A stretch of DNA of 64,000 nucleotides from an uncultured cyanobacterium. GTDB taxonomy: Bacteria; Cyanobacteriota; Cyanobacteriia; Cyanobacteriales; CAWUOF01. The notes beneath the pieces were generated by a model, which saw nothing but the letters and a program-made list of their open reading frames with translations, was not told where the DNA came from and ran no database searches. Every line of letters starts with the position of its first letter. Position 1 is the stretch's first letter. The stretch lies in NCBI GenBank assembly GCA_963744145.1, contig CAVUSO010000001.1:5696001-5760000 (forward strand), given 5' to 3'. Positions 29,290 to 34,427 of the stretch are shown piece after piece. A program made the translations under genes and the position numbers.

Positions 29290-29312
29290 TTCCAATAGTG
29301 AAAGAAAAATAG

Positions 29313-29395
29313 AGGAAGATGGAGGAATCGAACCCCTACAGAAACCCGTACCCTGGTTTTCAAGACCAGTCGCTGTCCATTCAGCGGCATCTTCC
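29313..29395 (-). tRNA. tRNA-Ser(TGA)
   Basis: Acceptor GGAAGAT/ATCTTCC, anticodon arm CTGGT-CTTGAAA-ACCAG, long variable arm, GGTTCGATTCC. Confidence 0.88.
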
Positions 29396-29402
29396 CTTGA
29401 GG

Positions 29403-29478
29403 GGTGTCTGACGGGACTCAAACCCGCTATTAACTAGCTTCACAGACTAGCGTCTCGATCGCTTCGACTTCAAACACC
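29403..29478 (-). tRNA. tRNA-His(GTG)
   Basis: G-1:C73, anticodon arm CTAGT-CTGTGAA-GCTAG; T loop TTTGAGT. Confidence 0.85.
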
Positions 29479-29483
29479 ATCAG

Positions 29484-29556
29484 TGGATCTGGCGAGGGTT
29501 GAACTCGCAACCTCCTGTTTGCAAGACAGGCATTCTCCCATTAGAACTACAGACCC
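29484..29556 (-). tRNA. tRNA-Ala(TGC)
   Basis: Acceptor GGGTCTG/CAGATCC with G3-U70, A73; CCTGT-CTTGCAA-ACAGG. Confidence 0.92.
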
Positions 29557-29565
29557 AAACCAAGA

Positions 29566-29639
29566 CGGGAATGGTAGGAATTGAACCCACAACATCCGAG
29601 GTAGAAACTCGGCGCTCTATCCGATTGAGCTACATTCCC
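29566..29639 (-). tRNA. tRNA-Arg(TCT)
   Basis: GGGAATG/CATTCCC, CCGAG-TTTCTAC-CTCGG. Confidence 0.9.
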
Positions 29640-29660
29640 ATCAACAATTGTGAAAATTTT

Positions 29661-29910
29661 TCAGTTCAGGCGATCGCGTAAGGGCGTGCAAGTTAGCAGA
29701 GCATTTTGCGTTTTCTCAGCTACTAGAGGGACTCCGCCGATGAGTTATTACACACTCTTTCAAGGATGGCTACTTCTAAGCCTACCTATCGGGTTCTTTG
29801 TACTCCCCATTGGCAAACGCGACCCGATATTTGATAGGGTTACTATTCCTCTCGTACTTAGTATGTAAGCTCTATCCTATTAGGGCACGCTGAGGACGCG
29901 ATCGCACTGA
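29661..29910 (-). ncRNA. Putative structured ncRNA mimicking the 23S rRNA factor-binding site (sarcin-ricin loop plus H42-H44 GTPase-associated centre)
   Basis: AGUACGAGAGGA hairpin at 29841-29863; CCGAUAGGUAGGCUUAGAAGUAGCCAUCCUUGAAAGAGUGUGUAAUAACUCAUCGG at 29737-29792; terminal stem GCGAUCGCGU..GCGUGC / GCACGC..ACGCGAUCGC. Confidence 0.8.
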
Positions 29911-29967
29911 TTACCAAACATGATCAAACGAATTTAACACACCTCCTTAAATCAAATTCAATTCACA

Positions 29968-30039
<72 letters not shown>

Positions 30040-30045
30040 TTTAAA

Positions 30046-30116
30046 AGCGGATAACGAGAGTCGAACTCGTACCTAGAATTTGGAAGAATCAGATGCTACC
30101 GCTACACCATATCCGC
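30046..30116 (-). tRNA. tRNA-Gly(TCC), anticodon stem with two U-U mismatches
   Basis: GCGGATA/TATCCGC, U73, TGATT-CTTCCAA-ATTCT. Confidence 0.78.
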
Positions 30117-30139
30117 CGATTAAAATGATCAGATTTGGT

Positions 30140-30985
30140 TTATTTATCTGGCCGAAATCGCCGATCGAACTCTGTAAATATCTTTCTTTCTTCGCTTAGA
30201 TCCAGAACTGAAAATAGGATGCTTTTGAATCTTCCCCAAAACTGTCCTTTTGTTAATAAAAAATCCGCAAACATTTGAGCGACCATTGCCGGATCGTTTC
30301 TGAATACTCCACATCCCCAAGCTCCTAAAACTAAAGCATCACAATGATGGTAAGCAGCTAAACTTAACAACTTAGCACCGCGAACATAGAGAACTTCGCG
30401 AATTTTTCCTTGAGCCGGAGATGGTCTTTTTCTAATTTCACCAGCGTTAGGAGCTGGACTAGTGAAAAAATCCACTTGATGGGGGATTGACAGTAAAGTT
30501 CCATCATCTTTGCGAAAAATTGGACAACTTGGTGAATGAATAATATGATCGGAATATAAAAGTGAGGAAGTAGACCGATGAAAATCATAATATTTAGGAC
30601 ATTTCAATAGACTTTGGTAAAGTCCAGAACTACGTGCTAAACTCTCTTCTTGTGCTTGAGCACCTCTCATAAATCCACCACCAGGGTTTTTAGCAGAAGC
30701 AAAATTGAGAACACCAATTTTGGCAAATTTTTGAGTTTTCGTCATCATTTCTGCTCCGCTCAATGTCGTCTCATTCCTGATGGTAAATTCAGTATTAGTG
30801 AAGGTGGCAGCACTAGCGAGAACTTCGGTTTGGATTTGCTCAAGATCAGCAGGATCGTAACATTTTGTTTGAGCGACACAGAATGCTAAATCTGGCGCTA
30901 TATCCACCCGTTCGCTTTGAGGGGATTGGTAATAACCTGCTGCTAGTATATTGAGAGTATCTTGCGCGATCGCAACTCGCTTCAT
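30140..30985 (-). CDS. TIGR02452/DUF2263 bacterial-type poly(ADP-ribose) glycohydrolase (PARG-like macrodomain)
   Basis: LNFASAKNPGGGF..GAQAQEESLARSS, VLGAWGCGVFRN; start taken at ATG 30985 because the longer ORF overlaps tRNA-Thr. Confidence 0.9.
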   Translation of the reverse strand: MKRVAIAQDTLNILAAGYYQSPQSERVDIAPDLAFCVAQTKCYDPADLEQIQTEVLASAATFTNTEFTIRNETTLSGAEMMTKTQKFAKIGVLNFASAKNPGGGFMRGAQAQEESLARSSGLYQSLLKCPKYYDFHRSTSSLLYSDHIIHSPSCPIFRKDDGTLLSIPHQVDFFTSPAPNAGEIRKRPSPAQGKIREVLYVRGAKLLSLAAYHHCDALVLGAWGCGVFRNDPAMVAQMFADFLLTKGQFWGRFKSILFSVLDLSEERKIFTEFDRRFRPDK

Positions 30986-31027
30986 GTGTTTAAAACTCCT
31001 GATACATATCTCCTTTTTTAAAGTCCA

Positions 31028-31099
31028 AGCAGGAGGCGAGATTTGAACTCGCATAGGCAGTTTACAAGACTGCTGTGTTGCCATTGACACCACACCTGC
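31028..31099 (-). tRNA. tRNA-Thr(TGT)
   Basis: GCAGGTG/CTCCTGC (one mismatch), GCAGT-CTTGTAA-ACTGC. Confidence 0.85.
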
Positions 31100-31107
31100 A
31101 TGATCAA

Positions 31108-31176
31108 ATACCCCTTGGATTTGAACCTTCCTAAACGAGCTGACTAGACTCGTGCGTGACCACTACTCTAGCCCGC
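31108..31176 (-). pseudogene. Degenerate tRNA
   Basis: GGTTCAAATCC T loop and ACGAG/CTCGT anticodon-like stem are present, but the acceptor strands do not pair. Confidence 0.6.
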
Positions 31177-31178
31177 TA

Positions 31179-31260
31179 TGGGTCGAGCTGGATTTGAACC
31201 AGCAAAGCGTTAAGCCGCGGTTTTACAGACCGTCACCTACACCAATAGGTGGGCCGACCC
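31179..31260 (-). tRNA. tRNA-Tyr(GTA)
   Basis: GGGTCGG/TCGACCC, A73, ACGGT-CTGTAAA-ACCGC, long variable arm. Confidence 0.85.
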
Positions 31261-31271
31261 AGAAAAAAACA

Positions 31272-31344
31272 CGGCCCCAACGGGATTTGAACCCGTGTCT
31301 TCTGATCGAAATTCAGAAATCCTTAACCACTAGACGATGGGGCC
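31272..31344 (-). tRNA. tRNA-Glu(TTC)
   Basis: GGCCCCA/TGGGGCC, TCTGA-ATTTCGA-TCAGA. Confidence 0.88.
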
Positions 31345-31347
31345 TTT

Positions 31348-31423
31348 TGGCAAGGGAGTCGAGCTTTGAACTCGAAGTCTTCGGTTTTGGAGACCGATAT
31401 GTTGCCAGTTACACCACTCCCCC
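31348..31423 (-). tRNA. tRNA-Trp(CCA), CCA end encoded
   Basis: TCGGT-CTCCAAA-ACCGA, ends GCCA. Confidence 0.9.
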
Positions 31424-31426
31424 CTA

Positions 31427-31501
31427 TGGTCGCAGCGGTGGGATTTGAACCCACATTTGCTCGGTTATGAGCCGAGGACTTTACCGTTAAGTTACACTGC
31501 A
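31427..31501 (-). tRNA. tRNA with CAT anticodon (Met, or Ile2), CCA end encoded
   Basis: CTCGG-CTCATAA-CCGAG, TGCAGTG/CGCTGCG, ends ACCA. Confidence 0.85.
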
Positions 31502-31538
31502 ATCTCTTTTAACTGTTTTCCCAACCTAATCTAGCTCA

Positions 31539-31611
31539 CGAGGCTGACGGGTTTCGATCCCGCTACCTTCTGTTCGACAGACAGACGCTCTCCCAATTGA
31601 GCTACAGCCCC
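31539..31611 (-). tRNA. tRNA-Asp(GTC)
   Basis: GGGGCTG/CAGCCTC, G73, TCTGT-CTGTCGA-ACAGA; T loop ATCGAAA. Confidence 0.88.
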
Positions 31612-31753
31612 ATTTAGATCAGGTTTACTTTTTGGGAATTTGGACTTGTTGGCGGTCTACCCAATAGGGCATTACCTGGGTCGGTGATTGCTCGCTTTTG
31701 AGTGAAAACCGCCTTTGTCCAAAAGTGTGTGATATGAAGAATTATTTATTTAG

Positions 31754-33965: not shown

Positions 33966-34427
33966 ATGCCAAGCGTTGTTTTAATTCATCCCCAAATTCC
34001 ACCGAATACAGGTAATATTGCCCGTACTTGCGCTGCTACAGGCACAAAATTGCATTTGGTCGGACCGATGGGGTTTGAAATTACCGATCGCTATTTAAAA
34101 CGAGCTGGTCTCGATTATTGGCCTTATGTTGACTTTTGTCACCATCAATGCTTGGCAGACTTTCAAAGTTATCATCAACAGCAAGGTGGACGTTGGATCG
34201 GTTTTAGCACTAGTGGAGTATGTAGTTATATTCGCTTTCAATTTCAAGCAAATGACTGGTTATTATTTGGCAGTGAAACTATGGGTTTACCTGCTGGAGT
34301 TCTGACTCAATGTGACGCTACCCTTTATATACCAATGAGTCAACCAGGAGTCAGAAGCTTAAATCTTTCAGTCAGTGTAGCTGTAGGACTATTTGAAGCA
34401 AGACGTCAATTAGGTGTACTTGACTAA
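33966..34427 (+). CDS. trmL: tRNA (cytidine/uridine-34 2'-O)-methyltransferase, SPOUT
   Basis: PQIPPNTGNIARTC, RAGLDYW, FGSET.GL, RSLNLS. Confidence 0.94.
   Translation: MPSVVLIHPQIPPNTGNIARTCAATGTKLHLVGPMGFEITDRYLKRAGLDYWPYVDFCHHQCLADFQSYHQQQGGRWIGFSTSGVCSYIRFQFQANDWLLFGSETMGLPAGVLTQCDATLYIPMSQPGVRSLNLSVSVAVGLFEARRQLGVLD

Follow-up and report, generated by a model that had tools for sequence, protein, structure and literature searches.

The window analysed here, a 64,000-nt stretch of a genome assembled from an uncultured cyanobacterium of the order Cyanobacteriales (GCA_963744145.1, contig CAVUSO010000001.1), carries on its minus strand an array of tRNA genes that spans positions 29312-31612 and in which 11 tRNAs are recognized by Rfam and 10 by ARAGORN. 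One spacer of this array holds no tRNA, and within it a sequence-only reading of the window had reported a copy of the GTPase-associated centre (GAC) of 23S ribosomal RNA (rRNA). The analysis presented below places this copy within a larger structured RNA that also carries the sarcin-ricin loop (SRL) of 23S rRNA. The spacer and the reported copy are located as follows:

29641..29967 (minus strand): spacer of the tRNA array without a tRNA, 327 nt, between tRNA-Val(UAC) at 29968-30039 and tRNA-Arg(UCU) at 29564-29640
29737..29792 (minus strand): reported GAC copy, corresponding to E. coli 1052-1107 (tip of helix 42 (H42), H43 and H44), matched by the Rfam model for large-subunit (LSU) rRNA

With E. 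coli numbering anchored on the fetched rrlH sequence of E. coli K-12, the copy was found where it had been reported: cmscan aligned window 29792->29737 on the minus strand to positions 1093-1148 of LSU_rRNA_bacteria (45.6 bits, E 1.1e-12) with no non-canonical pair, and this was the sole non-tRNA match in a permissive Rfam scan of 29600-30000. The individual bases read from the window were also present. H42, which is CCAG/CUGG in E. coli, is CCGA/UCGG; 1092-1099 is U-A along with U1072; an A stands at 1061; A1067 and A1095 are retained, and the GCUUAGAAG and GUAAUA loops are intact. The G-C pair at 1058-1080, listed as a further change, is there as well, but host 23S rRNA has the same state; the copy departs here from E. 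coli and not from its host.

The host genome has three normal 23S genes, all outside the window element, which is flanked by tRNAs and lies outside any LSU rRNA gene. Compared with host 23S, the GAC copy differs at 13 of 56 positions (1054, 1055, 1056, 1061, 1062, 1065, 1072, 1078, 1083, 1092, 1099, 1104 and 1105). Both sides are swapped in the H42 pairs 1054-1105 and 1055-1104, the 1092-1099 pair is swapped together with 1072, and U1062G turns a U.C opposition of the host into a G-C pair; the remaining five differences (1056, 1061, 1065, 1078 and 1083) fall at unpaired or non-canonical positions. Of the 14 Rfam-consensus pairs, the window copy has every one in canonical form and host 23S has 13. 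When 13 random substitutions were placed on the host GAC, 14 canonical pairs were kept in only 120 of 200,000 trials (0.06%), with a median of 9. The copy had been said to differ from 23S by structure-preserving changes, and these counts agree (p ~6e-4): the preservation of pairing is beyond chance.

The extent first given for the 23S-like stretch was right as far as it went, but the likeness is longer than 29737..29792, running from about 29808 to 29726 and taking in the whole of H42. The match to the LSU model is limited to 56 nt; with covariance model R1 it is 81 nt, host 23S matching model positions 89-169. In the same spacer, about 55 nt upstream of the GAC copy, lies an SRL 12-mer identical to that of 23S. 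The GAC copy is the tip of a replica of H42-H44 of about 83 nt, which is itself one arm of a three-armed RNA of about 207 nt. P1 and P2 close the molecule in the consensus structure. Two of the arms at the junction within are hairpins, one with the SRL and one variable (P4); the third, a long arm, runs through P5, P6 and an internal loop to the H42 tip, H43 and H44. Two rRNA parts that are 1,500 nt apart in 23S are here joined in reverse order with non-rRNA helices. The elements of the RNA are listed below, with pair changes counted over the 67 homologues described in the following paragraph:

29684..29890 (minus strand): core structured RNA, about 207 nt, from the 5′ strand to the 3′ strand of P1; covariance model R1, 231 bits
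29885..29890 (minus strand): P1 5′ strand GCGUGC, partner GCACGC at 29684-29689; 5 of 6 pairs changed on both sides
29869..29873 (minus strand): P2 5′ strand AGAGC, partner GCUCU at 29698-29702; consensus structure
29861..29867 (minus strand): near-invariant UACAUAC, next to the SRL stem on its 5′ side; possible partner GUGUGUA (1089-1095; 29749-29755)
29841..29863 (minus strand): sarcin-ricin-loop hairpin, a 5-bp stem around the SRL; helices 3 and 4 of the model
29847..29858 (minus strand): exact SRL 12-mer AGUACGAGAGGA, identical with E. coli 23S 2654-2665 and host 23S 2632-2643
29822..29839 (minus strand): variable hairpin P4; 6 of 6 pairs changed on both sides
29815..29820 (minus strand): P5 5′ strand GCGUUU, partner AAACGC at 29708-29713, closing the GAC arm; helix 6 of the model
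29726..29808 (minus strand): entire H42-H44 mimic (P6, which is lower H42, internal loop and GAC), like host and E. coli 23S ~1034-1120

When 401 sampled genomes of the same order were searched with the spacer by BLAST, 204 had matches at E<=1e-3. Many of these are due to the true 23S GAC alone (query 161/181-227, E about 1e-8). About 115 of the 401, by a count of rows, have matches at E<=1e-18 that take in the SRL and the GAC together with the 3′ part (query about 60/95-284), with 73-90% identity. For alignment, the 30 best loci were combined with 40 hand-picked weaker places, in 37 of which a profile search found a full-length member; L049, L069 and L070, which gave only a partial profile match, were left out. 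The resulting 67 full-length homologues come from different genomes. R1 finds all of them at 125-262 bits and gives host 23S 50 bits, for the H42-H44 part only. In a sample of 151 genomes of the phylum, full-length R1 matches occurred in 11, of which 10 belong to the same order and 1 to another order of the class, and there was none in the 50 genomes of one family (f48) in that sample. Named carriers are Dolichospermum flos-aquae (pAfl69), Kovacikia minuta (a replicon), Elainella, Myxacorys, Chroococcidiopsis, Oculatella and Leptolyngbya; no annotated feature lies beneath the pAfl69 match, and the Kovacikia record is wholly unannotated. Rfam 15 contains no such RNA, and no earlier description of an RNA with SRL and GAC was found in the literature searched, subscription-only papers and supplements lying outside that scope. 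By these searches, a small RNA that copies both centres appears to be new.

Base pairing was examined in two alignments of the 67 members, one fitted to the model (A4) and one made by MAFFT without regard to structure (A2), on which the GAC counts were repeated. In A4, 95.2% of 3,061 pair cells are canonical and 30 of the 47 pairs have changed on both sides (239 cells); in none of 500 shuffles was any of five measures equalled, and with the partner slid by 1-3 columns pairing fell to 34-52%. In A2, 98.9% of the 938 cells of the 14 GAC pairs are canonical. Seven of these pairs show double changes (59 cells), with 16 one-sided wobble cells and 10 unpaired; none of 500 shuffles reached the observed value for four of five measures, and slid partners were 26-63% paired. 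Individual pairs illustrate the exchange: 1053-1106 is C-G in 54 members and U-A in 13, 1055-1104 is G-C in 28, A-U in 27 and G-U in 12, and 1058-1080 is G-C in 60, U-A in 4 and A-U in 3. Compensation in the homologues thus far exceeds disruption (59 double versus 10 unpaired cells), as the sequence-only reading had proposed to check. The element is almost certainly a functional structured RNA that keeps the GAC fold.

Conservation extends to the bases of the triples. In the ribosome, C1072 contacts the C1092-G1099 pair and is stacked on G1071.(G1091-C1100), as described in parts of PMC2952862 and PMC8614978. Positions 1072/1092/1099 are U/U/A in 61 members, C/C/G in five (L052, L056, L057, L058 and L065) and C/U/A in one (L067), 1071/1091/1100 are G/G/C in all 67, and the sequences of both triples are isosteric-compatible. 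A maximum-likelihood tree of the 67 RNAs put four of the C/C/G members in one group (support 92/96), with L056 apart, near the base of the larger clade. C/C/G therefore stands at two places of the tree, which implies at least two coordinated three-position switches within the family, besides the difference from 23S. The three-way covariation noted in the window copy is real within the family, though the events are few and the tree was made from the same short RNA. With the pair counts in 67 homologues, it bears out the proposal that selection maintains the fold, and hence that the element is not a decaying rRNA fragment.

Conservation is uneven over the surface of the arm. The interface for the C-terminal domain of L11 consists of 1058-1060, 1062-1065, 1075-1083 and 1088 (PMC1802607, in part). 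At these 17 positions the mean majority fraction is 0.96 and 9 positions are invariant, while for eight positions of the loop face around 1067/1095 the mean is 0.76, with no invariant position among them (1067 is A46/G17/C3/U1, 1068 G39/A26, 1070 A38/G26, 1096 A50/G14 and 1097 U45/C17). There are 23 variants of 1065-1073 and 10 of 1093-1098 among the 67 members. Two of the original arguments for the fold did not survive this comparison. A1061 had been cited as stabilizing, but the family has U24/G23/A20 at this position, which varies naturally in rRNA, and the gain in stability from A1061 depends on Mg2+ (PMC6239185, in part). A1067 and A1095 had been cited as contact bases of thiostrepton, but A1067 is found in 46 of 67 members, and nowhere does the domain vary more than in the loop face; intact contact bases are a property of the window copy and not of the family. 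The distribution of conserved positions shows that selection guards the fold and the face for the uL11 C-terminal domain, not the face touched by factors and thiopeptides, and it makes binding of uL11 by the RNA somewhat probable.

Compared with the GAC and SRL (H95) of 23S rRNA, the RNA keeps the secondary structure, the possibility of both triples, the contacts of the uL11 C-terminal domain and the SRL 12-mer. It differs in lying outside an rRNA gene, in the reverse order of its parts and in its new helices P1, P2, P4 and P5; the 1067/1095 loop face, conserved in the Rfam 23S consensus, varies in the RNA family, and U/U/A replaces C/C/G in 61 of 67 members.

The SRL is a classic target of ribotoxins. 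Together with the GAC it makes up the pair of rRNA elements with which all translational GTPases are in contact and against which many antibiotics and toxins are directed. Across the family only one column of the SRL 12-mer shows any variation, and that in a single member (L058); the other 66 of the 67 members have the 12-mer intact, and its other 11 columns are constant. Its stem is 91.5% paired in A4, with 2 of 5 pairs doubly changed. Just 5′ of it, UACAUAC could form a 7-bp helix with 1089-1095 that is 97% pairable and shows no covariation; it is possible in 62 members and broken in the 5 with C1092. RNAalifold, run on the first 30 members, proposed a fold in which this pairing and one of part of the SRL with 1079-1083 replace H44 and the SRL; this fold was not adopted. 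The UACAUAC pairing may represent an alternative conformer or a switch.

Just outside P1, the self-complementary HIP1 octamer GCGATCGC occurs at 29898-29905 and again at 29670-29677 and so brackets the core. Both octamers lie within 35 nt in 16 of 67 members; they may pair with one another and extend the closing stem as a processing helix, or may merely reflect the abundance of HIP1. A type III toxin-antitoxin RNA was considered and rejected, as the RNA is a single unit of about 207 nt, the alignments hold no internal repeat, and the linked KptA is an RNA 2′-phosphotransferase equivalog.

Members of the family occur in two genomic contexts. The window element and 29 of the 30 best homologous loci lie in tRNA arrays (3-23 same-strand tRNAs in 3.2 kb) of the kind of the cyanobacterial L-arrays, such as the trn operon of Anabaena PCC 7120 (PMC8421152, PMC10272220), and array copies stand mostly between tRNA-Arg(UCU) and tRNA-Ala. 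A word search of the main texts of PMC8421152 and PMC10272220 gave no 23S-like, L11-related or sarcin-related element; PLSDB likewise gave no match on an Anabaena or Nostoc PCC 7120 plasmid, and the studied Anabaena array may lack the RNA. Between the upstream tRNA and P1, array copies carry a further motif:

29941..29948 (minus strand): Shine-Dalgarno-like AAGGAGGU, 57 nt upstream of P1 and about 20 nt past the upstream tRNA

This motif is found 45-95 nt before P1 in at least 34 of the 67 members, in array-embedded copies only. By its sequence it could be, inside a tRNA operon, a ribosome-loading site or a site that binds the anti-Shine-Dalgarno. A tiny open reading frame (ORF) behind it was considered and is not claimed, as neither its start nor its stop codon keeps a conserved register.

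The second context is that of stand-alone copies, where 19 of 20 loci have at most 1 tRNA within about 5 kb. Here 15 of the 67 members have a TATAAT-like box whose end lies 4-13 nt before P1, and at one locus TTTACA-18-TATAAT, an 11/12 promoter match, ends 9 nt before P1. The box and the Shine-Dalgarno-like motif are almost mutually exclusive, with both in 2 members. The position of the promoter shows that the functional unit starts at P1. From these signals the RNA appears to be made either as a spacer of a tRNA array, from which processing of the tRNAs would set it free, or from a -10 promoter of its own at P1. In one genome (L095, G019:C18:104600-123000) the two forms share a strand, with 8.3 kb between them: a stand-alone copy followed by genes for a methyltransferase, KptA and an AAA ATPase, and an array-embedded copy. 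Two copies or part-copies are also present in G077, G100, G239, G318, G311, G346 and G013. In arrays of three related genomes (L009, L013 and L014, about 1339-1412), and at L095:13790, an amber-reading tRNA (anticodon CUA, labelled tRNA-Pyl) is called by ARAGORN directly upstream of the RNA.

Neighbouring genes were analysed at 20 stand-alone loci, where 126 script-called ORFs within 2.6 kb were scanned against Pfam. A gene for the RNA 2′-phosphotransferase KptA/Tpt1 comes next on the same strand at 11 of the 20, the linked protein being an NCBIfam equivalog at 292 bits, and an AAA ATPase of about 400 aa is encoded downstream at 13. Other neighbours are NADAR (3 loci), Nudix (3), S-adenosylmethionine-type (SAM) methyltransferase (2) and an RNA ligase upstream (1); ThiF with a 280-aa unknown protein, the arrangement of pAfl69, occurs at 2. 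In the reverse direction, among the 80 closest relatives of one such KptA in the species collection, the RNA lies 16-119 nt upstream on the same strand in 12 and 5.3 kb away in one more, and many Nostoc-type KptA loci are without it. In arrays, a gene for PARG lies within 1.5 kb of the RNA at 10 of 30 loci, the window included, and genes for Macro, NADAR, RNA ligase and RNase T lie within 1.5 kb of other array copies. The PARG gene of the window is located as follows:

30140..31093 (minus strand): microbial-type PARG (macrodomain-class ADP-ribose hydrolase) gene inside the array, between tRNA-Gly and tRNA-Thr; PF10021 E 1.4e-48, TIGR02452 338 bits

Linkage to repair genes is partial, and it recurs in several genome families and in both contexts. 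According to sections of PMC9503650, KptA, macro, NADAR and Nudix proteins belong to an NAD+/ADP-ribose-linked RNA-repair network for the ends left by metal-independent endoRNases. PADLOC matches of the neighbouring proteins were weak or generic (TRIP13-like AAA at 3.5e-10, E1-E2 for ThiF, and a NADAR resembling PDC-M42C/DS32), and PADLOC and NCBIfam scans of these proteins assigned no named defence system. For the linked AAA ATPase, an AlphaFold2 model from a 12-sequence alignment was unusable (mean predicted local distance difference test score, pLDDT, 43.5), and ESM Atlas gave only clusters named "cyanobacterial AAA family ATPase". At one locus, the strand opposite to a stand-alone copy encodes, 2.2 kb upstream of it, an EF-G paralogue of 687 aa with all five EF-G domains (L108:445-2508, minus strand).

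Stand-alone GAC copies were also found in phages, between or beside tRNA genes or a 2′-5′ RNA ligase gene. In Pseudomonas phage pf16 a GAC-like stretch lies in a 253-nt spacer between tRNA-Asn and tRNA-Pro; a relative in Pseudomonas phage UNO-G1W1 lies between tRNA-Trp and tRNA-Arg, those of Pseudomonas phage Astolliot and Aeromonas phage 4_4572 just 5′ of tRNA-Met, and that of Xanthomonas phage XacN1 directly 3′ of an annotated 2′-5′ RNA ligase gene. Pseudomonas phage Milchi is a BLAST match only. The phage GAC-like RNAs have these positions:

L075:2442-2694: pf16, KU873925 29403-29655
L190:693-905: phage GAC-like RNA
L191:640-881: phage GAC-like RNA
L192:640-1008: phage GAC-like RNA
L193:781-1100: phage GAC-like RNA

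All are unannotated, and pf16 has no Rfam family match beyond a weak one to LSU. Aligned, the five show two invariant blocks that make up a complete GAC with C1072/C1092/G1099, split by an insertion of 100-250 nt in H44, and the SRL 12-mer is absent from them. They differ from the cyanobacterial family in the split H44, the C/C/G triple, the missing SRL 12-mer and the taxa that carry them, and the phage mimic is probably an independent invention in a setting of tRNA and RNA-repair genes. The occurrence of a phage GAC mimic beside such genes raises the odds that mimicry of this kind functions in conflicts over translation. Other plasmid matches are not regarded as stand-alone copies: one from Paenibacillus is a true plasmid-borne rRNA operon, and those of Arthrobacter and similar plasmids cover only the 23S-like 47 nt.

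Sequencing archives gave a weak hint of expression. At most 2 of 26 sampled words (0.08) were found in any sequencing run. Four metatranscriptome runs were compared at 80% likeness, and in three of them, from three studies (X2, X4 and X7), contigs of relatives reach from the GAC into the family-specific flanks (29684-29820); from contigs, neither transcription nor strand nor ends can be read. Depth over 29741-29787 comes mainly from the true 23S of other organisms, and none of the four runs covers the whole element, uncovered parts being uninformative.

Taken together, these data are best explained by a conserved GAC/SRL replica RNA that serves RNA-repair islands as a decoy or sentinel, an explanation to which as a whole we give a probability of roughly 0.45. 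The RNA would fold like the ribosomal GTPase centre, one arm most likely carrying uL11, lower H42 probably carrying uL10/bL12, and another arm displaying the SRL. It would be an off-ribosome replica of the site recognized by translational GTPases and by many ribosome-directed toxins, and would work with NAD+/ADP-ribose-dependent repair enzymes (KptA/Tpt1, macro/PARG, NADAR, Nudix, RNA ligase and the AAA ATPase). Its targets as decoy or sentinel would be enzymes that cleave or modify the SRL or the GAC: it would either absorb the attack or, damaged first, report it, upon which the tRNA array or repair operon would restore translation. This role, which is tentative, fits the repair-gene neighbours, the near-invariant SRL and the existence of a GAC-directed ADP-ribosylating toxin (PMC8661411, in part), and it fits tRNA arrays that have been tied to survival under translational stress or to induction by it (PMC8421152 and PMC10272220). 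Rather speculatively, the RNA may be a miniature free-standing replica of the whole factor site, stalk base (uL11 and uL10-bL12) plus SRL, put out as bait or alarm from arrays and repair operons, with proteobacterial phages having evolved GAC baits of their own independently.

Several observations weigh against the decoy or sentinel explanation. The only KptA of the host genome lies about 2.6 Mb from the RNA, and the linkage to repair genes elsewhere is partial (11/20 and 12/80). The 1067/1095 face, which on the ribosome is contacted by factors and thiopeptides, is unconserved, so that canonical factor docking on the GAC arm is doubtful. The 7-bp alternative pairing of UACAUAC would unfold H44 and is possible in 62 of the 67 members. 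Pair counts for P5 and P6 rest on the model-fitted alignment, and the contigs are a weak hint of expression. The uL10-bL12 site on lower H42 is placed by analogy with the architecture of the stalk base. Finally, the one documented ADP-ribosyltransferase that is directed at the GAC is described as acting on actively translating ribosomes, and a naked RNA might escape its recognition (PMC8661411, in part).

The alternative that fares best holds that the RNA is a factor mimic or sponge, which binds translational GTPases (such as EF-G, EF-Tu, IF2 and BipA) and sequesters them or triggers off-ribosome hydrolysis of GTP, so tuning translation in stress. An intact SRL and GAC in one molecule would suit such a part, and isolated SRL and GAC oligonucleotides reportedly bind EF-G (Munishkin and Wool 1997). 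Membership in tRNA arrays described as induced by translational stress (PMC8421152 and PMC10272220, in part) and the EF-G paralogue near the stand-alone copy in L108 point the same way. However, the bases a factor would meet are those that drift (A1067 in just 46 of 67 members, with 1068, 1070, 1096 and 1097 varying as well), a GTPase gene is linked at 1 of 20 loci and so is not recurrent, and the link to KptA, macro and NADAR is left unexplained. We regard this function as unlikely.

Autoregulatory leaders of ribosomal-protein (r-protein) operons are an established case of rRNA mimicry, and the RNA might by analogy be a storage or titration site for uL11 and uL10-bL12. The almost invariant interface for the uL11 C-terminal domain speaks for this, as does the retention of the whole of H42 with its conserved internal loop. 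Like the L10(L12)4 leader (Rfam L10_leader), the RNA would imitate off the ribosome the rRNA binding site of an r-protein. Unlike such leaders, it lies upstream of rplK, rplA or rplJ at none of the examined loci, has no Rfam leader match at E<=10 by cmscan, carries the SRL, is found in tRNA arrays or before repair genes, and is far closer in sequence to rRNA. As the near-invariant SRL arm and the repair-gene neighbourhood would also go unexplained, this possibility is less likely again.

Of similarly low probability is a role in cis, in which the stand-alone RNA would be a 5′ leader that controls the kptA-AAA operon (or one with NADAR or ThiF) by mimicking the rRNA substrate of the encoded enzymes or through its own damage, array copies being secondary. 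The promoter lies at P1, the downstream gene follows P1 by 16-119 nt with no clear intrinsic terminator between them, and the downstream genes vary within one pathway, a pattern like that of riboswitches. Against this, at least 34 of the 67 copies lie inside tRNA arrays, where tRNAs and not a coding gene follow; the stand-alone copies L103, L105, L106 and L108 precede unrelated genes, and no ORF lies downstream of the window copy.

A sponge for thiopeptides (thiostrepton, micrococcin), in which a uL11-GAC complex would soak up antibiotics of the A1067/A1095 cleft, could draw on the A1067, A1095 and intact loops of the window copy and on the link of arrays with survival under translation inhibitors (PMC8421152, in part). 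For the family as a whole it was rejected, since A1067 is not conserved (21 of 67 members are without it, and the loops have the 23 and 10 variants given above), and the SRL arm would be superfluous; we consider it very improbable. A decaying rRNA fragment or an assembly artefact without function, which would account for the likeness to 23S only, is refuted by full-length conservation in >100 genomes and covariation in 30 of 47 pairs, as well as by an RNA with its own promoter and two distant rRNA parts joined in reverse order with non-rRNA helices, and its probability is negligible.

A parallel to a decoy or sentinel RNA of repair islands may be bacterial Y RNA/YrlA in operons with Rsr (Ro60) and RtcB, where a structured non-coding RNA that mimics a component of translation likewise stands beside RNA-repair enzymes. 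The window RNA differs in mimicking rRNA centres, not tRNA, and in having KptA, AAA ATPase, NADAR, Nudix and PARG, not Rsr/RtcB, as partners. We know of no identified substrate of bacterial KptA/Tpt1, and the RNA is a concrete candidate for a partner RNA of this enzyme. It also adds a non-tRNA component to stress-induced tRNA arrays and could be used as a natural "ribosome in pieces" for the study, off the ribosome, of stalk assembly, GTPase activation and toxin recognition. The family moreover offers ready-made natural mutagenesis of the GAC, with the swap between U/U/A and C/C/G and one mixed intermediate. If the more speculative reading given above, phage baits included, is true, imitation of the active centres of the ribosome would be a weapon of general use in conflicts over translation.

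Three further observations concern the array and the searches. Window 29403-29477 (minus strand) scores 41.3 bits as a tRNA in Rfam and is not called by ARAGORN; it may be a degenerate or unusual tRNA of the array. NZ_AP027616.1, a 2,911-bp record filed under E. coli, is 86% identical to the cyanobacterial host 23S over 401 nt, versus 72% as is typical of E. coli, and on this comparison is probably a foreign or contaminant rRNA record. The gene for a SpoU-family RNA methyltransferase of 153 aa (33966-34427, plus strand) lies 2.3 kb past the upstream end of the array; it is probably of the housekeeping TrmL type, and its superfamily also includes the thiostrepton-resistance methylase.

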